64,000 nucleotides of DNA, taken from a virus (Duplodnaviria > Heunggongvirae > Uroviricota > Caudoviricetes). A program made the translations under genes and the position numbers. The stretch spans positions 1 to 64,000 of IMG/VR virus record IMGVR_UViG_3300033149_001657; one strand, 5' to 3'. This document shows, piece by piece, positions 2,123-50,234 of this stretch (position 1 is its first letter; the number at the start of each line of letters is the position of its first letter). The notes beneath the pieces were generated by a model, which saw only the letters and a list, made by a program, of their open reading frames with translations, ran no database searches and was not told where the DNA came from.

Positions 2123-2370
2123 TCTTCAGGAGCTTTTCTAGCTGCCTCTAATGAAACCTCCACTATGTCCTCTAAGTCTCTTTTCACCATTTCTTTCTCC
2201 TTCATACATACACACCTCCTCATTCAATGATCTCAAATTTATATTCAACATTACAATCCAAACCTCCTACCAAAACATCATTTCTTTATAATCTCACAAA
2301 AGTCTGATTGATTTCTATACTAATACAGTTTCGTTTAATGTCCTGAGCAGCTTTCATGATTCATGTTTCC

Positions 2371-2742
2371 TCATTCTGATAGAGCTGAATTGGAAATGTC
2401 TGGTACTTCATCTATAGAATAGAAGATCCTCAATCCAAGTTCCTTAGCCTTCTCTAGTTCTTTATCTGCTCCTTTACTCGGAGCAAGATAGAGAAGAGCT
2501 TCAGCCCACATCTCTAGAAACGTCATATCATACTCATACCACCATTCTCCATAGTCTCTAGGACAGGATGGATGAATATGAATATAATGTGTTAAATGTG
2601 GTACGAATGGATAGTGTCCTCTCTCTATCAATGTTATTGCAGCTTCTACAGCTCTATACACATTTTTAGCAGCTATCTGAATAGCTTCATGTTTGTTCTT
2701 TGCATTGACTGGATTGTATGGACCAGCTATATAGATTCTCAT
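2371..2742 (-). CDS. nucleoside 2-deoxyribosyltransferase-like / DUF4406-like protein (tentative)
   Basis: N-terminus MRIYIAGPY..N..FxxAAxxL..G..PFVPH resembles the NDT-fold family. SD GGAGGTGG upstream. Confidence 0.3.
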   Translation of the reverse strand: MRIYIAGPYNPVNAKNKHEAIQIAAKNVYRAVEAAITLIERGHYPFVPHLTHYIHIHPSCPRDYGEWWYEYDMTFLEMWAEALLYLAPSKGADKELEKAKELGLRIFYSIDEVPDISNSALSE

Positions 2743-2955
2743 TTAATTTTCCACCTCCAAGATTAATTTAGTCAGATATCCAGCTTCGAGTATAAGAGTA
2801 GCTTTTCTAACGTTCCTTAATTCTTCATAGCCAAATCTGTTTCTCACTAATACCTTTGATGATACCCAATCTCTCCCTATCTCTAACTTGAAGTGTCTTC
2901 CATTATAGTATCCATGAACTTCTCCAAGTATTATTCGTTTAGACACTAGAATCAC
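2743..2955 (-). CDS. hypothetical protein (70 aa)
   Basis: ORF in the minus-strand gene chain; overlaps the next gene by 17 nt. Confidence 0.35.
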   Translation of the reverse strand: MILVSKRIILGEVHGYYNGRHFKLEIGRDWVSSKVLVRNRFGYEELRNVRKATLILEAGYLTKLILEVEN

Positions 2956-3280
2956 CTCTATTGGATATCATTCTGTCATAGAGGACTTTGAGCTTTTTAC
3001 TAGCTATCTCTTGAAACTTGTCTACTGAGATTCCTATTGATTCAAGAAGTAGTACAAGATACACTATAATGTCAAATGCCTCTTCTCCTATGTCTTCGAT
3101 AGTAACTATCTCTAAGTTAGTACCTCCACCGTATAGCTTCTTTAGCTTATTGCAGAGTTCTCCTGTCTCACCAGCTAGAGCTACAGCAAAGAACATAGGT
3201 CCTTTTCTGAATCTCCAGTATGGATAGTAAATATCGTTGAACTTTACTATATCTTTCCAGATTTTCTTCATATAGATCAC
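2939..3280 (-). CDS. MazG-like nucleotide pyrophosphohydrolase
   Basis: Motifs LAGETGELCNKLKK and EEAFDIIVYLVLLLE are typical EExxE/ExxD MazG helices. GTG start 12 nt after a GATAGTGACTA motif. Confidence 0.55.
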   Translation of the reverse strand: MIYMKKIWKDIVKFNDIYYPYWRFRKGPMFFAVALAGETGELCNKLKKLYGGGTNLEIVTIEDIGEEAFDIIVYLVLLLESIGISVDKFQEIASKKLKVLYDRMISNRGDSSV

Positions 3281-3289
3281 CAGATAATT

Positions 3290-3559
3290 TTAGTCACTAT
3301 CTTTAAAACTTTTGACCAAAGAGCTTATGATACTCTTAAAGAATCCACTTACAAATCCCAGAAAAGCTCCAAGTTCCCATAGCTCACATTCTATCTCAGT
3401 AAGATTCATCCATATTTTAATCACAGCCTGTCCTAAAGGAGTCATTCCTACAACCCATCCTACAAAAGCTCCGATAGCTGTAGCAGCTATAGCTACTACA
3501 AAAAATGCAGTTACCACTAATACTCCAACTATTATTACAGCAAGTCCTTCATCTGTCAT
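3290..3559 (-). CDS. small membrane protein (2 predicted TM helices), holin-like candidate
   Basis: Hydrophobic stretches VIIVGVLVVTAFFVVAIAATAIGAFVGWVVG. Ends ..DSD* encoded by the GATAGTGACTAA motif. Confidence 0.4.
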   Translation of the reverse strand: MTDEGLAVIIVGVLVVTAFFVVAIAATAIGAFVGWVVGMTPLGQAVIKIWMNLTEIECELWELGAFLGFVSGFFKSIISSLVKSFKDSD

Positions 3560-8466: not shown

Positions 8467-8721
8467 CTACTGTATCACCATTATCCATAACAAAGTAGTA
8501 GTGATGATGAAATATTGGAATAAGAACTTACCAACTGGAATAAATATCGGTACAGTTCTCTCATATTTCTTAACAATCCTAGCTCGTACAGCTATCCATT
8601 CACCAGTAAAATGATAAATGATAATTCCTACAACAAGTCCTACTGCTAGTAATATAATTCCAGTAACAACTAAAAATTCTTTATCCATGCTCACTCTACC
8701 TTTATGATAGCTACTTTTCAT
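8467..8721 (-). CDS. small membrane protein
   Basis: Two hydrophobic helices (VVTGIILLAVGLVVGIIIY; FIITTTLLWIMVI). Confidence 0.35.
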   Translation of the reverse strand: MKSSYHKGRVSMDKEFLVVTGIILLAVGLVVGIIIYHFTGEWIAVRARIVKKYERTVPIFIPVGKFLFQYFIITTTLLWIMVIQ

Positions 8722-8728
8722 ATTCCGC

Positions 8729-9235
8729 TTATAAGCTGCTTCCTATTCTTATTATCTTGTCAGGCACGAAGCTTAGAGCATATTCAAACTTAGTAACTAG
8801 ATAATTTCTATACTCCTCATCAATACTTCTAAATCCATCTTCTACAAGTGGTAGTGGTTCACAGTAAAATATTATCTTCTTACCAGACATCTGATAATAT
8901 ATTTCTTTAGATCTAGATACTAGCTCATCACATTCTTCTTTAGTCATTCTGCCTTTATCATATAAATAAAGAGTATATGGAATGGTATCAATACTGCATC
9001 TATCCATGACAATATAATCAGCATTAAGCTCTACAAAATCTCTTTTAGCATAGAACTCTACTACCCACTTTTGAGATTTATATGTACCCATCTCATTAAT
9101 AGGATATGGACAATTTCGTATACCTTCCTCTCTGTATTCAACTTTGAATCCTAGGGACTTTAATAGAAGGTATGTAAATCTTGATCTAGTGGTCTTTCCA
9201 CTACACTGTACTCCAGAGAATATCAGACGTATCAT
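8729..9235 (-). CDS. P-loop NTPase / nucleotide-kinase-like protein
   Basis: Walker A FSGVQCSGKTT near the N-terminus; about 168 aa, the size of dNMP/polynucleotide kinases. Confidence 0.45.
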   Translation of the reverse strand: MIRLIFSGVQCSGKTTRSRFTYLLLKSLGFKVEYREEGIRNCPYPINEMGTYKSQKWVVEFYAKRDFVELNADYIVMDRCSIDTIPYTLYLYDKGRMTKEECDELVSRSKEIYYQMSGKKIIFYCEPLPLVEDGFRSIDEEYRNYLVTKFEYALSFVPDKIIRIGSSL

Positions 9236-13925: not shown

Positions 13926-14759
13926 TCATTCTTCATCAATCCTCCTAATAATATATGGACACTTAGAATAGCTCTTCATAGGATAGTAACTATCTATTAC
14001 ATTTAATATCTCATATGGCTCTTCAATTTTAGCTATTGAGGAAGAAAATGAGCATGGAGATATAGAGCCGTCTGGAAATACTGATATTATCTTTCTACCA
14101 CAACCACACTCTTCTATCTTTCCAATTTCAAGAGCTATACTTTCATCTACATATAAGTCAAATAGCACACTTGAAATTTTAATTGTTCTCTTTAACTCAC
14201 TAGCTCCATAATTTAGCTCATAGAACTTAGGTTGTAAAGCATAGAATTTTAGTCCTTCTGTTTTTAAATAGTTAAAGACTAAAGGCATAATTCCAAGAGC
14301 TATCTTATCCAGTATAAGGTAGTTTACTCCTACTTCAAAGTTAGACAAATTAGATAAGCTATCTATTGTACTAGATATGTTCCGTATTGAACCGTTAGAC
14401 TTAACCTTATGATGATCTACTGATACTGATACTAAGTCTACGTATTCCAATGATTCAATTACTTCTGAGTTTATTATTGAACCATTGGTAGTGAGAGACA
14501 CATTCATATCACAGTGTTTAGCTGTTTTAGCTAGTTTAGTTACTATCTTTGGAAATAATAGTGGCTCTCCACCACCTATGGCTATCTGTGGAATATTATA
14601 TTCACTAGCTGCCTTTATTAGATCACAGAACCAATCCACATCTTTCTCTACAGTAGATTTGTGAATATAGCAGAATGGACAATCGAAATTACATTTGGTA
14701 GTAAAGTGTATCGATAATACTTCAATCATCATATCCATTATTTCTGCACCATTCTTCAA
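13926..14759 (-). CDS. radical SAM enzyme (CxxxCxxC), possible C-terminal auxiliary Cys cluster
   Basis: Motifs CNFDCPFCY, GGGEPLL, and C-terminal CGCGRK..SPCSF. Confidence 0.7.
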   Translation of the reverse strand: MKNGAEIMDMMIEVLSIHFTTKCNFDCPFCYIHKSTVEKDVDWFCDLIKAASEYNIPQIAIGGGEPLLFPKIVTKLAKTAKHCDMNVSLTTNGSIINSEVIESLEYVDLVSVSVDHHKVKSNGSIRNISSTIDSLSNLSNFEVGVNYLILDKIALGIMPLVFNYLKTEGLKFYALQPKFYELNYGASELKRTIKISSVLFDLYVDESIALEIGKIEECGCGRKIISVFPDGSISPCSFSSSIAKIEEPYEILNVIDSYYPMKSYSKCPYIIRRIDEE

Positions 14760-19537: not shown

Positions 19538-19926
19538 TTAAGAGCTAATGGCTCTATTTTCTTTCTCAGATCTTGTGGTATCTTGTTGAAAAGATACTGA
19601 AGGGATTCATCCCATGTGCCACGAGCTAATAATATGAGACGTAGAGCATCCAACAACAGTCTCCTATTAAAGTACATTTCTGTAGCTGTTTCATCGGAAA
19701 AGAAATTGGTAGCATGATCAATAAACTCACAGTAATCCTTGTATTCTTCATATACCTTAAACTTATGAAGGTATTTTCTTACTGGATCATTCTCCGATAT
19801 CGTTATTTTCACTACTACATTAGATTTTTCACTTGGTAAAACAAAAGAAACTAGGTTTTCAAGATAGCTTATTGGTGAAATGATTTTGCTATTGACTTTG
19901 TACACAGACAAGAATACTAGTCTCAT
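19525..19926 (-). CDS. hypothetical protein
   Basis: 133-aa ORF. Confidence 0.4.
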   Translation of the reverse strand: MRLVFLSVYKVNSKIISPISYLENLVSFVLPSEKSNVVVKITISENDPVRKYLHKFKVYEEYKDYCEFIDHATNFFSDETATEMYFNRRLLLDALRLILLARGTWDESLQYLFNKIPQDLRKKIEPLALKCAL

Positions 19927-21191
19927 TTTATCTTCACTACCAGATCAAAGTAGTCTGGTACTCTTCTTTCATCACCATTTCTGGTAATAACCCATATCAC
20001 AGTCATGTCTGGATTTATCATGTCCTGTGTAGGAAACACTCCATACCCATCAGTGATATAAATCAACAGATCAACGTCATCTCCATCCTCCTGAATCTTC
20101 TGAAATATAGGTCTAAAATCTGTACCTCCTCCACCTTTAAGATGTAATGTGTTTAAGTCGTATTCTGACGTAATGGTTTGAGCTTCATAAAGCATTGCAT
20201 CAGAACTATAGATAGTGAGTTCTGCATTAGGTACTTCTCTGAATATCCCTATTATCTGTGATAATCCATCTCTTAGATCTTCCATACTCATGGAGCCAGA
20301 TGTATCTATAACTACTACTCCCTTTATCCCTGACTTTAGCACACTTGGTAAGTAATATCCAGCAGCTATCGATTTCTTAGAAGGTCTAGAGTAAGTATAG
20401 TCATAAGGCATATGTCTCACAATCAACTGAGGTAAATACTCCAACCAATTGATCTGTGGTTCTATCAAATCTTCTATCAATCTCTCTATACCCAATGGAG
20501 CTTTACCCATCGAGCTGGCATGATGCCATGCATCTTTTAATACCTTTCTCCAGTTAACAGTCTCTTTGTCATCTAATGCACCTTTTGGTATTCCCAGTTT
20601 ATCTAAATCAGACTTTGATATAATACCATCCTCTACTTTTTTCTTAGCTTCCTCTATATCTCTTCTGGTTATATGTTTATCTAAGCTACCACGTTTTTTA
20701 CATACTACAATTACTGAAGGAATACCACTATATCCATTAGGGTTCTTCTGTTTAAATGGACAGTTATCACAGTCACCATTGCATTCATATCTTTTAAGAT
20801 CTGGTAACTTGTCATATATTTCTTCCCATGCCATATCTTCGTACTCTCTCATGTATAAAGCTCCCAATGGAAGTTGAAATGTTTGTAGTATCAATGGATT
20901 TATAGCTAAGTCTTGAGCCATATTAGCTTTAAAATGATCTCTTCCTTCTTCTCTCTCCAGATGTCTAAGAGCCACATGCATCACTTCATGACATATTAAC
21001 CCCTTAACCTGTTCAATACTTAATTTCTTTATGTAATCTGGATTGTAATATACAACTCCATAAGGAGTAACAGCTGCTGTGTCTTCATTGGGATCTGGTT
21101 TGAATCTTAATGACATACATAGTACTCCAAAGAATGGCTGTTTAGATATCATCTGAACTCTAGCTTTAGTGATCTTCTCTTCTGGAGACAT
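19923..21191 (-). CDS. VWA-domain protein with N-terminal HExxH metallopeptidase-like domain (MoxR partner)
   Basis: HExxH motif in LICHEVMHVALRHLE; MIDAS-like motif VVVIDTSGSMS in the C-terminal half; immediately downstream of a MoxR ATPase with a 3-nt gap. Confidence 0.7.
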   Translation of the reverse strand: MSPEEKITKARVQMISKQPFFGVLCMSLRFKPDPNEDTAAVTPYGVVYYNPDYIKKLSIEQVKGLICHEVMHVALRHLEREEGRDHFKANMAQDLAINPLILQTFQLPLGALYMREYEDMAWEEIYDKLPDLKRYECNGDCDNCPFKQKNPNGYSGIPSVIVVCKKRGSLDKHITRRDIEEAKKKVEDGIISKSDLDKLGIPKGALDDKETVNWRKVLKDAWHHASSMGKAPLGIERLIEDLIEPQINWLEYLPQLIVRHMPYDYTYSRPSKKSIAAGYYLPSVLKSGIKGVVVIDTSGSMSMEDLRDGLSQIIGIFREVPNAELTIYSSDAMLYEAQTITSEYDLNTLHLKGGGGTDFRPIFQKIQEDGDDVDLLIYITDGYGVFPTQDMINPDMTVIWVITRNGDERRVPDYFDLVVKIK

Positions 21192-26414: not shown

Positions 26415-27032
26415 CTATAAGCTAGATTTATCTCTTCCACGTATCTTACTATACTTATAATTATTTATAGCTTTCAGAATCTCATTGATGTCTACTGGAC
26501 AGTAGTTCCACACATCAACACCGACATTTACTAGATACGTTCTAGATGTCTTCTTTACTTTCCATCTATCATGAACATGTCCTACTAGATTGATAGGATA
26601 GTCTGGATTGTGATCAATGGGATTGTGAGTACAGTAGATATCATTGCCACCTATTCTGAGAACAAGAGACTGGATAGGAGTGTTAAGTGAGTTGTTGTGA
26701 TCATGATTACCTTTCAGCAGAACAATATTGCCATTGAGCTGGTCAAGATAGTAACTAGGCTTATGGAGCTTCTTGTAAAACATGAAGTCTCCTAGATGAA
26801 TAACAATATCATGTTTATCTACTCTGGAGTTCCATAGCTGAATCAGTCTTATATCCATGTGATCAGCTGACTTGAATGGTCTATTACAATACTTTATAAT
26901 ATTCTCATGGCTAGCTACTAAATAGTAGCTAACTTTCATGACCAAAGTGTGTATCCGATGTAAACCAAGTCTTGATATCTCATCCCTCCCAGAATTAGAT
27001 ACTATCCTCCAGTTCGTATAAACACTGAACAT
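26415..27032 (-). CDS. calcineurin-like metallophosphoesterase
   Basis: Motifs HLGDF, LKGNHDH and GHVHD (the GDxHG / GNHE / GHxH set). Confidence 0.65.
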   Translation of the reverse strand: MFSVYTNWRIVSNSGRDEISRLGLHRIHTLVMKVSYYLVASHENIIKYCNRPFKSADHMDIRLIQLWNSRVDKHDIVIHLGDFMFYKKLHKPSYYLDQLNGNIVLLKGNHDHNNSLNTPIQSLVLRIGGNDIYCTHNPIDHNPDYPINLVGHVHDRWKVKKTSRTYLVNVGVDVWNYCPVDINEILKAINNYKYSKIRGRDKSSL

Positions 27033-28293
27033 ACACTCTGTAGAGAAGTGAACCAGATATATCTCCTAGACTAGCAGCTAAAGAGGATAGAACCTCAGCT
27101 TTCTTTGACAAGTCCATACCTTTATTCCTTAGTTTAACCATATGAGATCTAACTACCTCTTTAAGATCCTTTGGTGTTGGAGCCAATCTGTGTCTGATGA
27201 TAGAACGTATCTTATTCTCTGATTGTTCTATCAGATCTGATTCTATATCCTCAGCAAGCTCCTCCTTTACTATCGGATAGAGTTGTTCTGGTGTAGAGTA
27301 ATGTGGATAATTCTCCTTAGCTTTACGTACAGCTTTGTATATGATAGATACTGGTATCCCTTTAGATGCTATCTTCCATGACTTCTCTTTTATCTCATCA
27401 CATTTTAGCTTACAGAAATGAACATCCATATCAATATTTGAGAAATGTTTAGCTACAAACCCTTCGTATCCATCCTCTCCAAGATACTCCTTAGCTTCAT
27501 ACTCTATACGTTCTATCTGCTTACGAGTAAGAATACCAGACCACATCTCTTCTACGAATGGAATGTCATACTCTTGACAGAGATCTCTTGACTTTATAGG
27601 ATTAAGAAACTTAAGAGTACAAGTATCTACCACATCAAATACTTTGAAAGCTATAGGTATAGAATACTGTATGAACTCTCCTCTATTCAGATATCCGTAT
27701 AGTTCTCCAAATACTAAGTAATCATCTTTACATACTCTCTCTATTTTCTTAAGTAGCTCTCCATTATCTATCTTAGTAAACAGCTCTTTCCAGTGTGATA
27801 CTTGTCTCTTCATAGCCTGTAGAGATTGAACGTCCCATCTAGGCATCAATCTCGTTTTGCCCATTATTTCTCCATTAGGTAAAAGAAACAATCCAATATT
27901 AGTACCATCATATTTAGCTTGAACTATCACTTCTTTATCTATTACTTTTGTATCTAATGAGTAACGAATTTTTGGATAGCCTCTGATAACAAATGACTTA
28001 CTATCAAATAGTGAGAATATAGATCCCATAAGAGAGTTTCTTTTAAGATATATTACTCCAGTCCAGTCATGTCCATTCATTTTAAAGTGAAAGCTTCTTA
28101 TCTCACTAGGCTTACACTTTAGATGTTTAGTTACTATCGTTCTTATATTCTGTAATCCCTTTGTATGTTTTAGATCTTCTCTGATATTAGATAGTCGTTC
28201 AGATAACTCACTCATCATCATCCTTGCTCCAGATATTACGAAACTCTCCTCTTTCATCATTATCAATGATATGCCATAAAGTACAATAGTCAT
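26995..28293 (-). CDS. ATP-dependent RNA ligase (Rnl2-like nucleotidyltransferase); true start probably at an internal Met
   Basis: Motif I AKYDGTN, motif III FGELYG, motif IV EGFVAKH, motif V CKLKCDE. The N-terminus overlaps the upstream ORF 28208-28486. Confidence 0.6.
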   Translation of the reverse strand: MTIVLYGISLIMMKEESFVISGARMMMSELSERLSNIREDLKHTKGLQNIRTIVTKHLKCKPSEIRSFHFKMNGHDWTGVIYLKRNSLMGSIFSLFDSKSFVIRGYPKIRYSLDTKVIDKEVIVQAKYDGTNIGLFLLPNGEIMGKTRLMPRWDVQSLQAMKRQVSHWKELFTKIDNGELLKKIERVCKDDYLVFGELYGYLNRGEFIQYSIPIAFKVFDVVDTCTLKFLNPIKSRDLCQEYDIPFVEEMWSGILTRKQIERIEYEAKEYLGEDGYEGFVAKHFSNIDMDVHFCKLKCDEIKEKSWKIASKGIPVSIIYKAVRKAKENYPHYSTPEQLYPIVKEELAEDIESDLIEQSENKIRSIIRHRLAPTPKDLKEVVRSHMVKLRNKGMDLSKKAEVLSSLAASLGDISGSLLYRVYVQCLYELEDSI

Positions 28294-39912: not shown

Positions 39913-39942
39913 TTCAACAATCTTAGTAAGCTTATTGCATAA
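39913..39942. promoter_or_regulatory. early palindromic promoter/operator motif, copy a
   Basis: ttcaacaatcTTAGTAAGcttattgcataa followed by an A-run; upstream of gene 39623-39850. Confidence 0.4.
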
Positions 39943-39983
39943 TCAATTAAAAAAATGGTAACTAACGATAGTAACTAAACTCT

Positions 39984-40235
39984 CTACTTCGATGAACTAA
40001 CCTTCTTTCTCCAGCTCCAATATTTGGATCCTCTTAGCTTTTCAACATTAGATAAGGCACTGTTGAGAGCTTCACTGACATCCTTGAATCCATCTCCATA
40101 TACTCTAAACTCCCAAATAGCTATGGCATATTCCCTTTCATCATTTCTCCTACTAACATCAGCTATCTCAATAAGATACTCTCCATCTGAAACTCTTAAT
40201 GGACTAACAAACTCTCTCTTACTCATTCTCATCAT
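39984..40235 (-). CDS. early-region small protein
   Basis: Preceded by palindrome copy b plus a GATAGTAACTA motif. Confidence 0.4.
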   Translation of the reverse strand: MMRMSKREFVSPLRVSDGEYLIEIADVSRRNDEREYAIAIWEFRVYGDGFKDVSEALNSALSNVEKLRGSKYWSWRKKVSSSK

Positions 40236-40286
40236 CTCCTAGTGTTTGAAAGGGATAGTAACTAAAAGTATTAATAAGCTTTGGGA

Positions 40287-40316
40287 TTATGCAACAATCT
40301 TACTAAGCATATTGTA
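40287..40316. promoter_or_regulatory. early palindromic motif, copy b
   Basis: ttaTGCAACAatCTTACTAAGcatattgta plus A9. Confidence 0.45.
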
Positions 40317-40323
40317 AAAAAAA

Positions 40324-40336
40324 AGATAGTAACTAT
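40324..40336. promoter_or_regulatory. GATAGTAACTATC junction motif (perfect) followed by a 9-nt A/T run
   Basis: Between the stop of 40339-40755 and palindrome copy b. In the transcript the 5-bp-stem hairpin plus U9 looks like a weak terminator. Confidence 0.3.
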
Positions 40337-40338
40337 CT

Positions 40339-40755
40339 CTAGTTATCCTCTAGATAGATATGGAAGTAACAATAGAACATTGGTAGCTCATATATGTCAT
40401 CCTCATCTGTCTCTATTTCTTCAATAGGTTCAAAGAAATCATCATCCATCCTTATTCCATCCTCAAGAGCATCCTTGAAAGCTTTGACAAAGTCTTCCTC
40501 TGTAAGGTTCCTTATCTCATCTTCATATTGCTTGAACAAATCCTCGTTTATAGGAACATAGTCACTAGCTCTTAGCTCTTCCTCTAGTATATCTATTATG
40601 TCGGATACTGTCTCTCTATAGTCTATTGGAAAGCCAACTGGTAGACAGGCTACTAGATTCTCCTCTGCAAAGGCATGTCCATGTCCTTGAAAAAAGCTTG
40701 GATCTCCATTATACGTTTCATCTAGCTCTATTACGAATCTAACCATCTGGATCAC
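40339..40755 (-). CDS. early-region acidic protein (GTG start)
   Basis: Preceded by palindrome copy c and the TAGTAACTAT motif 9 nt before GTG. Confidence 0.4.
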   Translation of the reverse strand: MIQMVRFVIELDETYNGDPSFFQGHGHAFAEENLVACLPVGFPIDYRETVSDIIDILEEELRASDYVPINEDLFKQYEDEIRNLTEEDFVKAFKDALEDGIRMDDDFFEPIEEIETDEDDIYELPMFYCYFHIYLEDN

Positions 40756-40797
40756 CAGAACATAGTTACTAACCTAATTGATATTTAAATCTATATG

Positions 40798-40827
40798 TTA
40801 TGCAACAATCTTAGTAAGAGTGTTGTA
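40798..40827. promoter_or_regulatory. early palindromic motif, copy c
   Basis: ttaTGCAACAatCTTAGTAAGagTGTTGTA plus A11. Confidence 0.45.
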
Positions 40828-40847
40828 AAAAAAAAAAGAAAAGAGAA

Positions 40848-41213
40848 TTATGTTGTATTCGATTGAATCATGTCTAGTAGAGTATCAACAAAGTTCTCAT
40901 TGTAAGGAATATACTCATTTGATCCTCCACTGTAATCTTTGAAATCTCTAGCTCTCCTAATCAACATTGAATTCATCAACTTGTATCTAACATCTCCAGT
41001 ACTAAAGTAGAAGACTCTACCATCATTGACTTCAAAGAATCCACTTATAAAGAAGTGTCCTTTATGAAACTCAATCCTCTTTATGTAAGGCTTCAAGATC
41101 CTCCGTATGTCTTTGGTAAAGGTTCTGTAGAATCTTCTAAATTGTTCTGTCTCTCTAGCACTACTCTCAAATCCATCTTCCAACATGTCAAGACTCTTTA
41201 GCTTCATCTTCAA
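40848..41213 (-). CDS. early-region protein
   Basis: Preceded by palindrome copy d. Confidence 0.4.
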   Translation of the reverse strand: MKMKLKSLDMLEDGFESSARETEQFRRFYRTFTKDIRRILKPYIKRIEFHKGHFFISGFFEVNDGRVFYFSTGDVRYKLMNSMLIRRARDFKDYSGGSNEYIPYNENFVDTLLDMIQSNTT

Positions 41214-41258
41214 TTACCCTGAACAAGGATTATTACTGTCTCTTTATAAGACTTTACG

Positions 41259-41288
41259 TTATGCAACATACTTAGTAAGGATGTAGTA
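41259..41288. promoter_or_regulatory. early palindromic motif, copy d
   Basis: ttaTGCAACAtaCTTAGTAAGgatgtagta. Confidence 0.4.
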
Positions 41289-41308
41289 AAATACGAATCA
41301 TAAAAAAG

Positions 41309-41743
41309 CTAGGAAGCTTCTGTATCCTGTTCAGAAGCTTCACTAGACGATGTATCTAGTTCGTTCTCTGGTTCTGATGTCCATAAAAAATTTGGTGGTA
41401 AAGGGAGTTTAGGTCTTCCTACCTTCTCATCAAGAGCTTCCCTAGTTATCTTTAGGAAACTATCTAGATCAACTCCATACTCAATCATTAGATCGTTTAT
41501 CTTTTCTAGTATAGATCTTAGCTTCACTAGCTCATCAATCTGAGCTGTTTTCCTTCCAGCAAAGTGTAGAGCTTCCTCCACACTATCGAATCCTGTATAT
41601 TTCCACTCTTTTCTTATCAGTACATCGATTGTTTCTGAATCAGTTGATTCCTTTACTTCAACCTCTAGACCTCTAACATAGAATTTCCTGATGTTCTCTG
41701 CTCTTATCTGTTTCATCAGATCCATCAAACTTGAACCAAACAT
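41309..41743 (-). CDS. early-region protein
   Basis: Preceded by palindrome copy e. Confidence 0.4.
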   Translation of the reverse strand: MFGSSLMDLMKQIRAENIRKFYVRGLEVEVKESTDSETIDVLIRKEWKYTGFDSVEEALHFAGRKTAQIDELVKLRSILEKINDLMIEYGVDLDSFLKITREALDEKVGRPKLPLPPNFLWTSEPENELDTSSSEASEQDTEAS

Positions 41744-41793
41744 TTCAATTCCTTCCGAACCAAAGTCAGTATCTAGACTTATAAAGATTAAGG

Positions 41794-41825
41794 TTATGCA
41801 ACGAGCTTACTAAGGTTGTTGCATT
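41794..41825. promoter_or_regulatory. early palindromic motif, copy e (perfect arms ATGCAAC / GTTGCAT)
   Basis: ttATGCAACgagCTTACTAAGgttGTTGCATt plus A9. Confidence 0.45.
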
Positions 41826-41841
41826 AAAAAAAAAGGAAAGA

Positions 41842-42408
41842 TTACATGTAGTCGATATTGTTAGCTTGTAGATTGATTATGTCCCATCCAGTTACTCCTA
41901 ATAGATTCACTGCTCTATCAAGATAGAACCCTACTAGACCAAACAGAGCTTGAGCATTATGCTTATAGACTGTTTTGGCATATCTAAGAGCATCAGCTAC
42001 TGATCTAAAGTATCTAATCTTGATTTCTCCATAGAGTCCATGATTACGAGTCCTAACCTCAGAATCCACATCACAAGTCATAGATCCCTTAATAGATTCC
42101 ATGTTTACAGGAACTCCTCCACAGTATCGATATGATACATAGATCTTCATCTCATCAGAGTCCAGACTCATGTTCTCATACTCATTAGCTGATCTGAGAT
42201 AGTCACTATTTAGAGATCTAGGAGATACTACGATCTCAGTCTCCATCACCACTGGGTATGGATCATTGTCATATTTTTCATCTAGTTCCCTCATGTCTAT
42301 AGCTTCACATATCAGACCCAGATAGATATCCTTATCGTCATCCAGTTGACACTTGAATGATTCATCGTCTATGTAGATAACGTTCTCATCCAGTTCCAAT
42401 ATCCTCAC
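41842..42408 (-). CDS. early-region protein (188 aa)
   Basis: Preceded by palindrome copy f, a CTTATATTT box, the TAGTAACTAAGG motif and an AGGTGAT SD. Confidence 0.4.
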   Translation of the reverse strand: MRILELDENVIYIDDESFKCQLDDDKDIYLGLICEAIDMRELDEKYDNDPYPVVMETEIVVSPRSLNSDYLRSANEYENMSLDSDEMKIYVSYRYCGGVPVNMESIKGSMTCDVDSEVRTRNHGLYGEIKIRYFRSVADALRYAKTVYKHNAQALFGLVGFYLDRAVNLLGVTGWDIINLQANNIDYM

Positions 42409-42462
42409 GTCAAATCACCTAGACCTTAGTTACTAGACCTTACAAATATAAGCCTAGTGGTT

Positions 42463-42490
42463 TTGCAACAGTCTTAGTAAGGATGTTGTA
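42463..42490. promoter_or_regulatory. early palindromic motif, copy f
   Basis: tTGCAACAgtCTTAGTAAGgaTGTTGTA. Confidence 0.45.
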
Positions 42491-42639
42491 TTACTTAGAT
42501 CTCAATGCTGGCTGAATAATAAGCATAGCAACTAAAGATCTAGCTTGGTTCTCTGGAAAGTGTTGAAAGAAATATTTGATCTTCTCCTCATCAGTCATGT
42601 CTTTTGTTCTTCGATAGATTTCTCCTAAAGTCATCTTCA

Positions 42640-42915
42640 TTACTTATTACCTCTTGGTTTTCTAAAGAATAAGGTTATTCTCAAGACATCATTGCCTAAT
42701 GCAGTTGGTTTCAGCTTAGTGGACCTGAAATATTCATACCCTAAACCTTTCATCTTCTTCTTTATCTCATCCATTTTCCTATTGATTAAATCCCGATCTC
42801 CATAAACTCCAATGCTAGCTCTGATGTATTCACCTTTGTAATAAACCGAAGGATGAGTTACCCAATAGCTATTACAGCAAGTCTGATCTACTCTCCACCA
42901 CTCAGTTGAGCTCAT
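42640..42915 (-). CDS. early-region basic protein
   Basis: Preceded by degenerate palindrome copy g and a GATAGTGACTAT motif. Confidence 0.4.
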   Translation of the reverse strand: MSSTEWWRVDQTCCNSYWVTHPSVYYKGEYIRASIGVYGDRDLINRKMDEIKKKMKGLGYEYFRSTKLKPTALGNDVLRITLFFRKPRGNK

Positions 42916-42963
42916 ATCGAATCACCGACACATAGTCACTATCTCTGCTTTTAAGACTTAGGT

Positions 42964-42990
42964 TTATGCAACATATTTGTGTGAATAGAC
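42964..42990. promoter_or_regulatory. early palindromic motif, copy g (degenerate right arm)
   Basis: ttaTGCAACAtatttgtgtgaatagac. Confidence 0.25.
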
Positions 42991-43016
42991 TTATACTTGT
43001 TTATCACTGTTCATAT

Positions 43017-43184
43017 TCATATTCTCTCTGTCCTGACTGACATCCAATCCACTGGATTATCTCCACACGAAATAGCTGAAGCTAAGTCTTCTTCAAAAAA
43101 TTCGATAGCTTCAGATTCAGCTTCTTCTTCATTATCAGCTTCCAACTCACATTCCCACGAAATTCTAACTCTGTACTTTGGCAC
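43017..43184 (-). CDS. small acidic protein (55 aa, GTG start) found by manual translation
   Basis: Downstream of palindrome copy h; GGTGAT SD 7 nt before GTG; below the ORF-track size cutoff. Confidence 0.3.
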   Translation of the reverse strand: MPKYRVRISWECELEADNEEEAESEAIEFFEEDLASAISCGDNPVDWMSVRTERI

Positions 43185-43233
43185 TTAAATCACCAGAACC
43201 TAGATAAGCATATCACTATATAAGATTAAGGGT

Positions 43234-43263
43234 TTTGCAACACACTTAGTAAGACTGTTGCAT
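43234..43263. promoter_or_regulatory. early palindromic motif, copy h
   Basis: ttTGCAACAcaCTTAGTAAGacTGTTGCAt. Confidence 0.45.
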
Positions 43264-43431
43264 CAGATCATCTAGCACTTTGATATATTCTTCTAACCAT
43301 CTCAGGTACATGTTTCTTGATAAAGTTGTAATCTGGTTTGATATTGTGTTTTTCACAGCTTTCAATGTATTTCTTTACCCATTTGATACCGATGTCCCAA
43401 GATTTGTGTAGAGTAATCAAAGTCATCATCT

Positions 43432-43746
43432 CTATTGAAGTTTATAGCAACATTCAGAGCATTCTAAGTTTACATGATAGGTATCTTTTCCACATCTAAG
43501 ACATGGAGCAAAACACTGACAGCTACCAAACTGCCAATAGTATAGACAGTTATTTTCTCTACAGAAATCTGGAATCTCATCTCTATAGACAGCTCTAAGA
43601 AACTTTGTCTTATCAAATCTGGGATTATCCAGCTCAAAGTATCTACATAGTCGCCTTACTATCTCCTCTTTGTTTGGTGAAACCCTCAATATCCCAGCTA
43701 TATCCTTATAGTATTTCTTGCTCAACATTTTAATCACAATTCTCAA
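43432..43746 (-). CDS. Cys-rich protein
   Basis: Motifs CQCFAPCLRCGKDTYHVNLECSECC; preceded by palindrome copy i. Confidence 0.4.
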   Translation of the reverse strand: MRIVIKMLSKKYYKDIAGILRVSPNKEEIVRRLCRYFELDNPRFDKTKFLRAVYRDEIPDFCRENNCLYYWQFGSCQCFAPCLRCGKDTYHVNLECSECCYKLQ

Positions 43747-43775: not shown

Positions 43776-43838
43776 TTATGCAACATCTTTATTAAGCTAA
43801 TTGCATAATTCAACATGCTTATATAATCATGTTGAAGA
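43776..43838. promoter_or_regulatory. double palindromic motif, copies i and i2
   Basis: ttATGCAACAtctttattaagctaaTTGCATaa followed by tTCAACATGcttatataatCATGTTGAag, a palindrome centred on a TATAAT-like box. Sits between divergent genes 43432-43746(-) and 43935-44681(+). Confidence 0.45.
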
Positions 43839-43934
43839 TACATAATCAGCTTAAGATTATTCCGATAATACCCAAAATCTTAAATATACCTTATTATCTA
43901 TGGATAAGCAAAAACGTAAAGGTGAAACGTAGAA

Positions 43935-44681
43935 ATGGTTAGACCGAGAAAAATCCATATAAGCAAAGAACAGATGAGAATTTGGTTAGAAAATGGAATG
44001 AGCTATAGAGAAATAACACGAGAAATTAAAAAGCTCTATGGCTTAAAATTTGACCCCTCAACGATATATAGGCATACCGTAAGACTCGGACTAAAAGACA
44101 AAAATATACACAAACAATATAAAGACTTTTGTAGAGAACACAAGAAAAAAGTTAAGAGAATCAATACACATTTAGCGACTAAAGCTAATTGCTATATGGA
44201 CATCACAGAGATAAGCTTTAGATCACAAAAGGGCAAACATAAGAGATCAGTTAAACGATATTTTGTGAGCTTAAAGGTAGAGAAAAAACTATATCTTTAT
44301 TACATCAAAGATCAAACAAAAGCTTCAATCCTAACAGCTATGATACATCTAAAGGAATTTATGCCAGCAAATCCGATTTGTTTAGTTGATACACAATTTA
44401 ACCCAAAGCTTCCCGAAAGATCAGAGATAACATTTTGTAACACAGAGAAATGGCATCCAATTAAAAATATGGTTGAAAAACATCACGGATTCAAGACAAA
44501 TATATACGCTAAATTCTGGAAGTTCAAGACCGTATCTTACTCAAAGATGAACGATGAATCTAAAAGACAGCTCCTAAGGATATACATTGAAACGATAGAA
44601 CGTAATGAACACATTGAGATAATCAACAAGGATGAAATGATAACAGAGATATGTAGATTAGCCGAAGCTCAACAACTATAA
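43935..44681 (+). CDS. basic HTH-domain protein, candidate transcriptional regulator (alternatively transposase-like)
   Basis: N-terminal helix-turn-helix MSYREITREIKKLYGLK..STIYRH. The only plus-strand gene in the early region; flanked by inverted copies of the palindromic motif (43809-43838 and 44701-44731). Confidence 0.45.
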   Translation: MVRPRKIHISKEQMRIWLENGMSYREITREIKKLYGLKFDPSTIYRHTVRLGLKDKNIHKQYKDFCREHKKKVKRINTHLATKANCYMDITEISFRSQKGKHKRSVKRYFVSLKVEKKLYLYYIKDQTKASILTAMIHLKEFMPANPICLVDTQFNPKLPERSEITFCNTEKWHPIKNMVEKHHGFKTNIYAKFWKFKTVSYSKMNDESKRQLLRIYIETIERNEHIEIINKDEMITEICRLAEAQQL

Positions 44682-44700
44682 ATCCAAACTCTTTTTTTTT

Positions 44701-44731
44701 TATGCAACAGAATTATATAAGCATGTTGAAA
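44701..44731. promoter_or_regulatory. palindromic motif, copy j (inverted copy of i2) after HTH gene
   Basis: tatgcaacagaattatataagcatgttgaaa; its reverse complement matches 43809-43838 at about 25 of 28 positions. Confidence 0.4.
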
Positions 44732-44976
44732 TAAACGAATAAGAAACGGAGGAGGAGAGATGAGAAATAGATACCTGGACTTAAAATGTACAAGTAAAAT
44801 GTACAAGTAATATCTCTGACTCTATAAAATTTTTAGGAGCTTAAGTTACTATCTTCTAAAAATCTTTTAAATCTGGACAATAAAAACATTACATCATGAG
44901 CAGTGCCTACTGAGATAAAAATAAACGAATCTGATTTGCTTAGCTTCCTCATAAGAATTTTCAGAGTTCTCTCTAA

Positions 44977-48207: not shown

Positions 48208-49455
48208 ATGCCTATACTAATCAAAATGAATCTTGGATGTAATTTTGAGTGTGAGTATTGTTATCAGAAACCAATTAGAAAGCTAAAAGATAAAGAATGG
48301 AATCTTAAAAGAGTTAAAGAGACAATTAGAAATCTAATATTAACCATGCCAAGAGGATCTAATCAACAGATAGTTGTTCATGGAGGAGAACCATTAACTA
48401 TGCCAATAAATATACTTGAACAGTTACTAGCTCTTTCTTACGAGCTTACTGGTAAATCTAGTATACAAACAAATGGATATCTAATAACTGATAAACATAT
48501 TGAACTATTTAAGAAATACAAGACTAGCGTAGGAATATCAGTAGATGGTCCATTTCAATGTAATGTTTTACGTGGTAAAGGAAACTTGAAAGATAGAAAG
48601 AAACAAACAGAGAGAGTACTTAAGAACTTAAACAATCTTGTAGAAGCTGGTGTTTCTACTTCAGTAATAACAGTAGTACATAAGAAAAATGCAATTGGAA
48701 TAAATAGAGACTTATTAAAGAGTTTTATTTTGGATCTTCATAAGAAAGGTATCCATGGAAGACTGAATCCATGTGGAACAGATGATCCAGAGATCTCTCT
48801 TACTATTGAAGAAGCTATAGATTTCTATACTGACATGTACAAGTTTATGGAAGAGAATGGAATCTATGGATGGTCACCATTCATCGATATATTAAATTCA
48901 CTACAGAGAAAATCATGTGTATGTACATTTAGTGGTTGTGATCCATACTGTACGCCATCAGCTATTTCAGTACTCCATGATGGATCTCTTGGAGTATGCC
49001 TTAGATTATACAATGATGGTAAAGTCTATCTAAGAGATACTACACCTACTTCAATGAGAACACAACTCCTTAAAGAGACAGAATGTAAAGGTTGTAAATG
49101 GTTTGATTATTGTAAGGGAGGATGTAGTGGACTTAGTATAAATTCAGATTGGAGACACAAGGATAGATTCTGTGAAGTATACAAAGCTCTATTTGAATTA
49201 GCACATAACACTCTAAAGTTTGTTGGAATACACCCCCCATCCGTATCACAAATCTCAAGATCAAGATACGAACATTTAGATCATGGTATTAGACACCTTG
49301 ACAGTGATATTGAAAACGATCATACGGATGGAATCAAGCACTCAGACACTGGAACCACTCACCTAGATAGTAACTTCTACTCAAAGTCTGATCATTCGGA
49401 TGGAGAAAGACATGTAGATGGACCAATAGAACATTTAGATAGTAATTGGAGGTGA
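48208..49455 (+). CDS. radical SAM / SPASM-domain enzyme with C-terminal His/Asp-repeat tail
   Basis: Motifs CNFECEYCY; GGEPL; SPASM-like CKGCKWFDYCKGGCSG; roughly 60-aa tail with repeats HLDxG/HLDSN/HSDG/HTDG. Confidence 0.7.
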   Translation: MPILIKMNLGCNFECEYCYQKPIRKLKDKEWNLKRVKETIRNLILTMPRGSNQQIVVHGGEPLTMPINILEQLLALSYELTGKSSIQTNGYLITDKHIELFKKYKTSVGISVDGPFQCNVLRGKGNLKDRKKQTERVLKNLNNLVEAGVSTSVITVVHKKNAIGINRDLLKSFILDLHKKGIHGRLNPCGTDDPEISLTIEEAIDFYTDMYKFMEENGIYGWSPFIDILNSLQRKSCVCTFSGCDPYCTPSAISVLHDGSLGVCLRLYNDGKVYLRDTTPTSMRTQLLKETECKGCKWFDYCKGGCSGLSINSDWRHKDRFCEVYKALFELAHNTLKFVGIHPPSVSQISRSRYEHLDHGIRHLDSDIENDHTDGIKHSDTGTTHLDSNFYSKSDHSDGERHVDGPIEHLDSNWR

Positions 49456-49460
49456 AATAA

Positions 49461-50234
49461 ATGGAGCCTTTTACTAGAATATTATGGTTTGATCAGAAGA
49501 CAAAGCAGATATGGAAAAGACAAATTGAACAAGCTAGAAGACTCTATGAAGCTGTAGAGTTTGCTACTTTTGAAGCTGGTATGAGAGATGTCTATGTTAT
49601 GCACATATATCCAGAGAAGATATCTCAGCAACTAGAAATGATAGCTAAAGGTAAGTATGTTTTTCTTCCTATTCTGAAGAGTAAACGCTATTCTGGATTC
49701 TCTCACAGACATATACCACCAAAACCTGGTGATCCATATTTCATTTACGGAGTAGTAGCCAGAAATCTGGAGGATGCTGAGAGGTTCAAGGAATGTTCCA
49801 TTGGAAACAAGGTAGATCATGTAGAGATTGGAAGATTACTTGGATATCCTGAATGTTGTACAGAATTCTTTGATAAAGTCTGGAATAAGAAAAGCATAGA
49901 TCCAATCTATGAAGCTTATGGTTCAGAGACTTCTATTCATCCATTCTGCAATCAAGCTTTAAGATACTTTGGCATTAGACTAACACCTCATCTTGTTTGC
50001 TCTCCAACATGCAAGAGAACTATTGAAATGGGTAAGAAGTGGTTCAAAGTAGCTGAATCAATAGACTATGGATCTGCTCATACTCTTTTGAAGTTACTAT
50101 CCATGCCGTTTAAATGGTCATGTCTAAATGGATGTGCAATTATAGACACTGAACTATTTAGAGGTGTAACTAATTCGGATAAATGTTCAGAGGAAAAGGT
50201 TGTGATAAATCATGGATGGAACAAAGAACTTTAG
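49461..50234 (+). CDS. Cys-rich protein (GYPECC motif), probable partner of the rSAM enzyme
   Basis: SD GGAGGTGA then ATG; motifs LLGYPECCTEFF, CSPTCKR, CLNGC. Confidence 0.45.
   Translation: MEPFTRILWFDQKTKQIWKRQIEQARRLYEAVEFATFEAGMRDVYVMHIYPEKISQQLEMIAKGKYVFLPILKSKRYSGFSHRHIPPKPGDPYFIYGVVARNLEDAERFKECSIGNKVDHVEIGRLLGYPECCTEFFDKVWNKKSIDPIYEAYGSETSIHPFCNQALRYFGIRLTPHLVCSPTCKRTIEMGKKWFKVAESIDYGSAHTLLKLLSMPFKWSCLNGCAIIDTELFRGVTNSDKCSEEKVVINHGWNKEL

Follow-up and report, generated by a model that had tools for sequence, protein, structure and literature searches.

The Salmonella H segment is bracketed by inverted palindromic hix sites of two half-sites each and is served by the serine recombinase Hin. 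In integrons the tyrosine recombinase IntI recombines attI and attC sites, and RAYT transposases belong to the HUH/Y1 enzymes and work on hairpins of single-stranded DNA. Promoter/stem-loop cassettes, the PeSLs, are known in T4-type phages (PMC2839356, PMC4122927).

The window analysed here, 64,000 nucleotides of viral DNA, carries a gene for a 248-aa protein in a slot between an early-gene array and the terminase operon (Table 1). The first-pass annotation described it as a basic helix-turn-helix (HTH) protein gene between inverted operator copies and read it as either a cI/Cro-type switch or a small IS, a reading that was partly supported by the present analysis. The interpretation preferred here, at a probability of about 0.4, is that a fixed transposase-derived enzyme acts on the palindromes of this region through autoregulation and/or cassette rearrangement.

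Table 1. Features of the DDE gene locus and of the neighbouring early-gene array (positions in the window)
Feature	Position	Strand	Description
Small early-gene array	39913-43262	-	type-1 palindromes before most genes
Type-1 palindromes	39913-39939, 40290-40316, 40801-40827, 41262-41288, 41797-41823, 42464-42490, 43236-43262	- (array)	
Half-site remnant of type-1 palindrome	42967-42973		
Palindrome A	43776-43808		TTATGCAACAT-CTTTATTAAG-CTAATTGCATAA; type-1-like, degenerate right half; upstream of leftward gene 43432-43731
Palindrome B (type 2)	43809-43836		TTCAACATG-CTTATATAAT-CATGTTGAA; perfect 28-bp palindrome, TATA-like centre
Promoter-like box of DDE gene	43870-43889	+	ACCCAAAATC-TTAAATATAC; BRE/TATA-like, 44 nt before ATG
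Shine-Dalgarno of DDE gene	43921-43925	+	GGTGA
DDE gene	43935-44681	+	248 aa, basic; predicted HTH + DDE (integrase-fold) protein
HTH of DDE gene	43962-44084	+	about aa 10-50
RNase H-like core of DDE gene	from about aa 84	+	
Candidate catalytic codons of DDE gene	44199-44201, 44388-44390, 44475-44477	+	D89, D152, E181
T10 run	44692-44701	+	directly after stop codon of DDE gene
Palindrome C (type 2)	44702-44730		ATGCAACAG-AATTATATAAG-CATGTTGAA; left half degenerate
Purine-rich non-coding element	44731-44785		between slot gene and 3' end of large terminase gene

The gene had been singled out as the lone plus-strand gene among the early genes, and it is indeed the sole credible plus-strand ORF from 1 to 48 kb. 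Its product is basic, as stated (pI 9.8; K+R 52 versus D+E 28), and the N-terminal HTH was recovered as Pfam HTH_38 (E 2e-3; 3.7e-7 in the best family member) and as a three-helix unit at aa 11-50 of the predicted structure. The HTH belongs to the transposase type (HTH_38/23/28) and the other ~200 aa form an integrase-like core. In the AF2 model, built with 11 sequences and of medium confidence (pLDDT 79.3, pTM 0.64), D89 is part of strand 1, D152 follows strand 4 directly and E181 belongs to a helix. D89 aligns with the catalytic D124 of IstA (PMC10122671), and all three residues, together with K101 and R104, are kept among family members down to 23 % identity. The product is thus predicted to combine a transposase-type N-terminal HTH with a retroviral-integrase/DDE-transposase core bearing a conserved D89-D152-E181 triad. 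The fold comparison suggested at first pass, repressor versus DDE, came out in the predicted structure on the DDE/RNase H side; beyond the HTH there is no XRE/Cro-like repressor fold, which speaks against the cI/Cro-type switch. As judged from a dN/dS of 0.059 at dS 0.50, purifying selection on the gene is strong, and conservation of the triad and of K101/R104 at such a ratio is hard to account for without catalysis.

Database searches placed the protein in no described group. Structure comparison in BFVD gave weak matches only, to retroviral integrase and RNase H, and a profile search of PDB sequences with four sequences gave no match. Pfam and NCBIfam returned HTH matches below threshold only (IS630 24 bits versus a cut-off of 100, IS3 25 versus 160), and the cut-off of no curated IS/transposase family was reached. 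The HTH part alone matched phrog_125 ('DNA invertase'; profile positions 169-231, E 2e-3), another weak PHROG match was to 'transcriptional repressor', PADLOC matches were confined to the HTH and no tyrosine recombinase signal was found in the protein. The family is tiny, unannotated and restricted to viruses: a set of some 15 billion proteins contains ~11 cluster representatives of it, all of them on virus-like contigs, mostly from probably archaeal tailed viruses of ~108-128 kb. No relative was found in 185,579 cellular species genomes or in the phage collection, where the TerL matches were distant as well (26 %). The gene is single-copy in each genome fragment and patchily distributed among TerL relatives. 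The homologue in the relative L004 is 93 % identical and that in L010 39 %; L007 and L009 are contigs of 1.5-2.3 kb with family members at 23-30 % identity. Since L012 is identical to L010, it adds no independent lineage.

The inverted repeat around the gene, reported at first pass as 18/18, proved real and exact, with a length of 19 nt: TTCAACATGCTTATATAAT (43809-43827) is the reverse complement of ATTATATAAGCATGTTGAA (44712-44730) at 19/19 positions. At up to three mismatches the pattern was found three times versus 0.07 expected per shuffle, and 0 of 100 shuffles reached three; the complementarity continues over 40 nt at 80 %. One arm is the left 19 nt of palindrome B, which sits 99-126 nt upstream of the ATG, and the other is the right 19 nt of palindrome C, which begins straight after the T-run. 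Since B and C are each palindromic themselves, their description as inverted operator copies is partly automatic, and since other pairs of the intergenic palindrome family share exact matches of 13-16 nt, the 19 nt of B and C stand at the top of a continuum. What holds of that description is that B and C, within this larger family, are a distinct subtype, a TATA-centred variant of the early-promoter palindrome ACAnnCTTAnTAAGnnTGT longer by 1 bp: they alone have a 14-nt spacer (13 nt in the other palindromes) and the centre TTATATAA. A single ancestral palindrome split by an insertion with an 8-bp duplication of TTATATAA was considered and dropped, as B and C are both complete palindromes in L002, L003 and L141.

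The conservation of B and C exceeds that of synonymous sites. Palindrome B is kept in L004 (26/28) and L002, and C in L004, L003 and L141; palindrome A is perfect in L002. In L004 the inverted repeat stands at 17/19, and B and C have both changed from CAACA to CAATA. In L010 the DDE gene is retained, C is missing and only a weak B-like site is present, an observation that counts against the proposed enzyme action on the palindromes. The inverted repeats do not flank the gene in L010 or L001. A scan of IMG/VR with a degenerate type-2 pattern gave single chance matches only, and a search with the exact type-1 pattern retrieved the sister contig only.

Most genes of the array are preceded by one unit, composed of a T-run, the type-1 palindrome TGCAACA-nn-CTTAsTAAG-nn-TGTTGCA, AA and a BRE/TATA-like box. 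The core ACAnnCTTAnTAAGnnTGT precedes seven early promoters near the DDE gene, and the intergenic family further includes the site at 43779 (within palindrome A), all within one 5-kb block. The distance from the right half-site to the TATA-like box is a constant 10 nt; this fixed register would suit a pure transcription-factor site equally well, which likewise counts against the proposed enzyme action. The most conserved outer positions of the palindrome are CA/TG, the dinucleotide cleaved by many DDE transposases (PMC10122671). Sigma-70-like sites were no commoner than in shuffles (17 vs 20.8), and TTGCAT and TATAAG in the early promoters are spaced by 12 nt; we infer from this layout, which fits a BRE/TATA box with a GGTGAT Shine-Dalgarno sequence, that the promoters are of archaeal type. 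The DDE gene has such a promoter-like box of its own, laid out as in the neighbouring early promoters and kept in L004, L002 and L003. Palindrome B lies 37 nt upstream of this box and separate from it, a layout that may tell further against a cI/Cro-type switch. The T10 run is likely to be the terminator of the gene, and the order of T-run and then palindrome is also found after minus-strand early genes.

Three cassette-level differences between the window and L004 (40840-41220, 42973-43186 and 43262-43488) are bounded by palindrome/promoter units, and the gene replacements and indels between the two end at these units. Such mosaicism could come from ordinary homologous recombination between the conserved promoter units of 60-80 bp, as has been proposed for the PeSL units of T4-type phages (PMC2839356, PMC4122927).

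At the level of sequence, the palindrome with the core ACAnnCTTAnTAAGnnTGT co-occurs with the DDE family across lineages: it is present in six of the seven lineages with the family, which are not independent of one another. The family-bearing loci hold 7 copies in the window, 9 in L004, 3 in L002, 5 in L010 and 1 each in L007 and L009. The seventh lineage, L001, carries a rearranged version of the palindrome, in which the CTTAsTAAG centre is combined with outer arms in a different arrangement; this is another observation that speaks against the proposed enzyme action. The motif was absent from the TerL relatives without the family (L142, L144, L143 and L140), of which L142 and L144 alone have the early region covered. 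As background, unrelated viral DNA with a total of 1.05 Mb gave 7 matches at up to two mismatches.

L004 and L010/L012 have the DDE gene at the locus where the window has it. The gene adjoins terminase genes in all lineages and is convergent with TerL in the window, L004, L010/L012 and L141; with this one orientation throughout, no ongoing inversion was observed. Comparison with relatives lacking the gene, proposed at first pass, revealed no empty site: in L140 and L142 the same convergent slot is filled with unrelated genes, so the opposite-strand orientation belongs to the locus and not to the gene. The element at 44731-44785 is kept in L004, L003, L010, L141 and also in L140 and L142, which have no DDE gene, and it is a property of the locus, not of the DDE cassette; Rfam gave no match to it and RNAalifold no consensus structure on either strand. 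The divergent neighbour 43432-43731 has its own palindrome A and its own promoter, and the genes neighbouring the DDE gene, this one included, have no family matches.

Block orientations beside the gene differ among L001, L002 and the window, and a simple inversion between B and C, tried as a way to turn the L001 or L002 order into that of the window, is impossible. In L002 a remnant of the 5' end of the leftward gene puts the breakpoint inside that gene, not at a palindrome, and the DDE gene is a truncated copy in a different context: viral DNA stops inside it and runs on into a Nitrososphaeria chromosomal region, with 17 nt of microhomology at the junction. This junction may be an assembly chimera, since the GC content of its two sides differs (34 % and 49 %). 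Neither the L002 nor the host junction has a tRNA.

In the preferred interpretation the DDE protein would attach as a dimer, by way of its HTH, to the palindromes, which would be its sites of action. B and C could serve both as the cassette's own ends and as autoregulatory sites, like the terminal repeats of an IS or the hix sites. At type-1 sites the enzyme might cut and join DNA, leading to exchange and inversion of self-contained promoter-gene-terminator cassettes, and/or might modulate early transcription. The DDE cassette would then be a fixture of the virus, derived from a transposase and kept by selection, and not a newly inserted IS or a repressor of cI/Cro type. In favour of this interpretation are the predicted fold with its triad, the purifying selection and constant locus of the single-copy gene, the co-occurrence of family and palindrome, the conservation of B and C with their common change in L004, the cassette boundaries relative to L004, the block orientations that vary among L001, L002 and the window, and the CA/TG positions. 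The single orientation relative to the terminase gene and the possible origin of the mosaicism in homologous recombination weigh against it.

The same protein could be a domesticated transposase that performs no DNA chemistry and acts, by itself or through a switch built on it, as a transcription factor only. Early promoters would be activated or repressed from the palindromes, whose role would be that of operators or upstream activating sites, and there would be autoregulation via B and C. The constant 10 nt between the right half-site and the TATA-like box would be expected of such a factor, as would the co-occurrence of protein and palindrome, the gene divergent from 43432-43731 and the 'transcriptional repressor' match; binding at B and C could occlude their TATA-like centres. 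We consider this explanation somewhat unlikely, as the triad, K101 and R104 are kept to 23 % identity under a dN/dS of 0.06, the predicted fold is a full integrase core and no Cro-like partner is identifiable among neighbours that lack family matches. If it were correct, the locus would show plainly how a transposase that retains its catalytic residues has been domesticated to regulate viral early genes. Alternatively, the bracket could be incidental: the palindromes would be generic promoter/terminator boundary modules bound by another viral or host factor, and the enzyme would work elsewhere, for example in viral integration or packaging-related DNA processing. Its proximity to terminase genes in all lineages points this way, and so do the unrelated genes in the convergent slot of L140 and L142, the gene without site C in L010, the palindromes flanking every early gene with exact matches of 13-16 nt between other pairs, and the L002 sequence that passes from the DDE gene into Nitrososphaeria DNA. 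The last of these may be chimeric, however, and the explanation is rendered unlikely by the co-occurrence of palindrome and protein family, even on the tiny contigs of distant members, and by a B/C subtype found only at the DDE gene and conserved in three sub-lineages.

An autonomous IS would span 922 bp (43809-44730), carry a single DDE gene between terminal inverted repeats of 19 bp, and have entered an ancestor of these viruses while remaining mobile. Of the insertion proposed at first pass the protein class stands, a DDE transposase fold with a transposase-type HTH, and the size and single-gene layout are IS-like. The exact repeat, its 17/19 state in L004 with a shared change, the patchy distribution among TerL relatives and the truncated copy in another context in L002 could be read in the same way. 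Nevertheless, the search for a target-site duplication, also proposed at first pass, yielded only ATAA as common to the window flanks, and a 2-nt indel abolishes it in L004 and L003. There is one copy per genome fragment, 185,579 species genomes lack the family and ~11 representatives are known, the gene keeps its locus in the relative of 39 % identity, where the repeats are missing, and homology runs past both 'ends', which are palindromes related to promoter elements. With no cut-off of a known IS family reached, a mobile IS is quite improbable.

A bolder reading, and a very doubtful one, is that of an undescribed cassette-shuffling system in a probably archaeal tailed virus, in which a minimal HTH-DDE recombinase recognising ACAnnCTTAnTAAGnnTGT junctions would insert, exchange or flip cassettes. 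The promoter-gene-terminator cassettes would be delimited by 5'-TG...CA-3' inverted ends, the DDE gene would be one flipped cassette, and an integron-like or REP/RAYT-like logic would be run by a DDE enzyme.

Should the link between protein and palindrome be true, the family would form a new and very compact branch, confined to viruses, within the integrase/transposase superfamily, and its partner would be a defined 19-bp palindrome punctuating a hyperplastic early-gene array. It would provide a concrete pair of enzyme and site on which the shuffling of small accessory genes in viral genomes could be studied, and a minimal DDE enzyme, amenable to experiment, whose substrate is a short palindrome.

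Among described systems, the protein resembles the rve-type DDE transposases and retroviral integrases (IS3, IS21, IS481, IS30; IstA; the HIV/ASV integrase core) in having a transposase-type HTH at the N-terminus with an RNase H-like core behind it, and in the placing of its acidic residues, the first in strand 1, the second beyond strand 4 and the third in a helix. Its first motif, MDITEISF, recalls DiTyi of IS3, and the palindromes next to it have the conserved CA/TG. It differs from these enzymes in its much smaller size (248 aa), its D-63-D-29-E spacing and the missing match to any curated IS family; its gene is virus-restricted, single-copy and syntenic, has no target-site duplication, and its 'ends' are palindromes shared with promoters. 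With the Hin/hix system the locus shares a segment of ~0.9-1 kb holding only a recombinase-like gene, inverted palindromic sites of ~26-28 bp and a weak 'DNA invertase' PHROG match of the HTH, but the domain here is DDE and not a serine recombinase; the second orientation was seen in no relative (window, L004, L010/L012 and L141) and no outward-reading promoter was identified.

As in the REP/RAYT system, a transposase-like gene lies between inverted copies of a short palindrome that is also dispersed intergenically in the same genome, but the predicted fold is DDE/RNase H-like and not HUH, and the palindromes form one 5-kb block in register with promoters. The integron likeness, one of architecture only, consists in a recombinase gene divergent from co-oriented small cassettes, with imperfect palindromes between them and a special site beside the recombinase gene; here the enzyme is DDE and each cassette has its own promoter. 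In the PeSLs of T4-type phages, too, intergenic units of terminator, palindrome and early promoter flank small variable genes and bound replacements and indels between close relatives, and homologous recombination has so far been the only explanation for accessory gene shuffling there. The promoters of the present array, in contrast, look archaeal (BRE/TATA) and not sigma-70, and the palindrome is accompanied by a dedicated DDE gene and retains its core across deep lineages.

The 19-mer TTCAACATGCTTATATAAT (43809-43827) returns in exact reverse complement at 44712-44730, and 80 % complementarity between the two arms carries on over 40 nt. With up to 3 mismatches allowed the inverted-repeat pattern was found 3 times, against 0.07 expected per shuffle, and at least 3 occurrences were seen in 0 of 100 shuffles. 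From 1 to 48 kb, the ORF lying between the arms is the only one on the plus strand that is credible. The first-pass annotation, which described a lone plus-strand gene with inverted operator copies, was thus confirmed, the exact repeat being 19 nt. The encoded protein is basic, as had been noted (pI 9.8; K+R 52 vs D+E 28), and its N-terminal HTH was substantiated by Pfam HTH_38 (E 2e-3; up to 3.7e-7 in other family members, HTH_50 6.8e-8) and by three helices at aa 11-50 of the AlphaFold2 model.

The protein combines this HTH with an integrase-fold DDE enzyme and represents a new, very small family of a well-known superfamily. Four relatives were found in the 5.8-billion cluster database and 18 matches, about 11 of them full-family members, among 1.84 billion representatives; none was detected in the phage collection or in prokaryotes (one genome per species, 185,579 species). 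No Pfam or NCBIfam model matched the family at cut-off, and all sub-cut-off matches were to transposase HTH (IS630, IS21, IS1, IS3, IS6, IS481), one IS3 alignment reaching MDITEISF. In the 11-sequence alignment D89 and R104 never vary and K101 varies hardly at all; D152 occurs in every full-length member and position 181 is E (D in one member). The AlphaFold2 model reached pLDDT 54 from 4 sequences and pLDDT 79.3 with pTM 0.64 from 11. The HTH is followed by the order strand-strand-strand-helix-strand-...-helix, with D89 on strand 1, D152 immediately behind strand 4 and E181 within helix 175-182; TnsB, MuA and Hermes may be named beside this predicted fold. A profile search of PDB sequences matched the HTH of IstA (E 1e-3), and a weak second segment of the same match aligned D89 with D124 of IstA, whose catalytic residues are D124, D187 and E233 (PMC10122671). 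The question of repressor versus DDE fold was accordingly answered by the predicted structure and the aligned triad in favour of the latter, and the suggested cI/Cro-type switch repressor was ruled out at fold level. A dN/dS of 0.059 at dS 0.50 vs the sister genome L004 shows strong purifying selection on the gene.

A DDE enzyme is also what the alternative proposal, a small insertion sequence, had called for, and in enzyme class that proposal held; as a mobile element it was not supported. As a possible target-site duplication the window shares only ATAA on the two sides, which a 2-nt indel removes in the relatives L004 and L003, and in L002 the left flank differs. There is one copy of the gene in the window and one in every locus. 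L004 (a 109,754-bp IMG/VR contig, 93 % aa identity) and the window are collinear and agree in orientation, and the identical L010/L012 loci (115,870 and 128,201-bp contigs, 39 % identity) keep the order of small genes (-), DDE gene (+), TerL and TerS (-), neither flanking inverted repeats nor a site C being present around the gene. In L001 (43 % identity) the gene stands directly upstream of the terminase genes, co-directional with them, and the repeats are absent. Homology among relatives runs past both putative ends of the element. Since a target-site duplication is missing, the gene is single-copy and synteny and homology extend beyond the ends, a classical IS is unsupported and an autonomous active one unlikely.

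Each repeat arm proved to be half of a palindrome. Comparison with a related contig by blastn showed that palindromes like B and C recur in intergenic regions left of the gene, and these were collected with the pattern TKCAACA-N13/14-TGTTGMA and by reading the intergenic regions.

Coordinates of the DDE gene, the palindromes and other features of the window
Feature	Position	Description
DDE gene	43935-44681 (+)	248 aa
Palindrome B	43809-43836	TTCAACATG-CTTATATAAT-CATGTTGAA
Palindrome C	44702-44730	ATGCAACAG-AATTATATAAG-CATGTTGAA
Type-1 sites	39913, 40290, 40801, 41262, 41797, 42464, 43236, 43779 (site A)	13-nt spacer in all; centre CTTAsTAAG (CTTTATTAAG at site A)
Half-site remnant	42967-42973	of type-1 palindrome
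Box of DDE gene	43870-43889	ACCCAAAATC-TTAAATATAC
Cassette difference	40840-41220	replaced vs L004
Cassette difference	42973-43186	replaced vs L004; homology ends right after half-site ACA
Cassette difference	43262-43488	window only; starts at palindrome outer edge
Divergent neighbour	43432-43731 (-)	99 aa; Cys-rich C-terminus (CxxC-type, weakly like zinc-ribbon L37e)
Purine-rich non-coding element	44731-44785	ATAAACGAATAAGAAACGGAGG...GAAATAGATACCTGGACTT; between slot gene and TerL 3' end
15-codon ORF	from 44761	strong Shine-Dalgarno GGAGGAGG; frame not kept in L003
Tandem duplication	44782-44807	perfect; 13-mer TAAAATGTACAAG
TAGTWACTA, examples	3100, 5962, 28944, 29052, 39969, 40256, 40327, 44979	9-bp palindrome
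Other genes	13926-14759, 48208-49455, 49461-50234, 19923-21191, 26995-28293	two radical SAM, DUF483 (archaeal family), DUF2201 metallopeptidase/VWA, RNA ligase

A 14-nt spacer with the centre TTATATAA is found in B and C only, and no other pair among 45 matches exactly over so long a stretch (19 nt in inverted orientation; 13-16 nt reached elsewhere). On the coding strand every minus-strand unit reads T-run, palindrome, AA, 8 nt BRE-like, a CTTATAAAG-type box, 35-45 nt, GGTGAT and start codon. The DDE gene repeats this layout on the plus strand, with B, 37 nt, the box, 44 nt including GGTGA, ATG to stop, T10 and then C; it is therefore built like the other cassettes in the opposite direction, and its bracket is the local form of one found at every cassette. 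Sigma-70-like promoters and intrinsic terminators were no more frequent than in shuffles, and the early-gene layout would fit archaeal BRE/TATA promoters with oligo-T terminators. The DUF483 protein and the L002 junction described below are suggested as further pointers to an archaeal host. A separate palindrome, TAGTWACTA, gave 138 matches at up to 1 mismatch in the whole window (35.7 ± 6.9 in shuffles), with about 45 exact copies in intergenic leaders and inside genes.

The core conserved across lineages is ACAnnCTTAnTAAGnnTGT, its outer arms varying by lineage. Counted with up to 2 mismatches, the motif occurs 7 times in the window, 9 in L004, 3 in L002 and 5 in L010, all carrying the DDE family (single 2-mismatch matches off the array, at 23110 and at 4511 of L004, were left out). 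It occurs once each on L007 and L009, contigs of 2.3 and 1.5 kb with members of 23-30 % identity, lying at the gene 3' end like C in the former and about 100 nt upstream like B in the latter. Four TerL relatives without the family (L140, L142, L143, L144) have none; the early region is covered in L142 and L144 and lies off the contig in L140. Background in 1.05 Mb of unrelated IMG/VR DNA was 7 matches. In L001, which has the gene, the arms around its four CTTAsTAAG centres are arranged differently. In L004, 1 of 19 nt in B and 3 of 19 nt in C differ from the window, a higher conservation than that of synonymous sites (pS 0.36), a CAACA-to-CAATA change being common to 3 of their 4 half-sites. 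This co-occurrence, correlative and drawn from few independent lineages, is the main argument for taking the palindromes as candidate cognate sites of the DDE protein.

Comparison from TerL homologues on other contigs, including relatives lacking the gene as the annotation had advised, showed that what separates the 3' end of TerL from the early genes is a slot of variable content. In L141 (TerL 86 % identical) it is filled by the DDE gene, with site C also present; in L140 (76 %) and L142 (58 %) it is filled by unrelated genes, at 8510-8911 (-) and 8600-9133 (-), for which tblastn, HMM search and hhalign gave no similarity to the DDE family. As these too are convergent with TerL, a lone opposite-strand gene is a trait of the locus and no mark of insertion. 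The gene is patchily distributed among related viruses. The N-terminal part of its divergent neighbour is 65 % identical in the distant L010/L012 lineage, so the divergent pair is conserved. The non-coding element beside the slot is kept in every relative examined, including L140 and L142 and the 39 %-identity L010; neither a consensus RNA fold nor an Rfam match was obtained for it, and it may be a DNA site tied to packaging. Several related TerL are 727-806 aa long vs about 450 (P0025, P0031, P0039, P0043, P0044, P0047), one with LAGLIDADG/intein Pfam domains, which suggests TerL inteins in this virus group.

The window and L004 (~80-87 % DNA identity) show three cassette-level differences, each bounded by T-run/palindrome/promoter units, a boundary pattern as in the PeSL cassettes of T4-type phages (PMC2839356, PMC4122927). 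The orientation of blocks beside the DDE gene varies among lineages: in L002 a homologue of 40339-40755 immediately precedes A, B and the gene and runs in the gene's direction, and in L001 both neighbours are co-directional with the gene. In L002 the viral sequence breaks off near codon 150 of the DDE gene (junction ~2298-2320). Beyond it (2298-3373) follows a chromosomal Ldh_2 region (malate/L-lactate dehydrogenase family) whose DNA matches Nitrososphaeria ('Thaumarchaeota') MAGs at 91-93 % identity. An imperfect microhomology of 17 nt, GCCTAAAA(A)TCCAAYAT, marks the junction, where GC rises from 34 to 49 %; it could be a chimera of the assembly or an integration junction, the latter a hint at the host.

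The protein would bind the palindromes as a dimer, and B and C would be sites of autoregulation or the protein's own ends. At the palindromes the protein may nick or join DNA, as proposed from conserved CA/TG positions that suit DDE chemistry, and/or control early promoters. A fixed transposase-derived enzyme acting on cognate palindromes is the tentatively preferred reading (probability about 0.4). A pure transcription factor, favoured by the promoter-linked position of the palindromes and opposed by the conserved DDE triad, is rather less probable; an incidental bracket around an enzyme acting elsewhere, against which the co-occurrence speaks, is a little less probable again. A DDE-driven cassette-shuffling system is as doubtful as the active IS.

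For the fixed enzyme with its palindromes, what appears new is that a DDE enzyme confined to viruses is combined with +1 variant sites of its own and with a co-occurring promoter-linked palindrome array. Without the defining features of any of them, the gene and its palindromes are partly like IS ends, hix sites, PeSLs, REP/RAYT and integrons.
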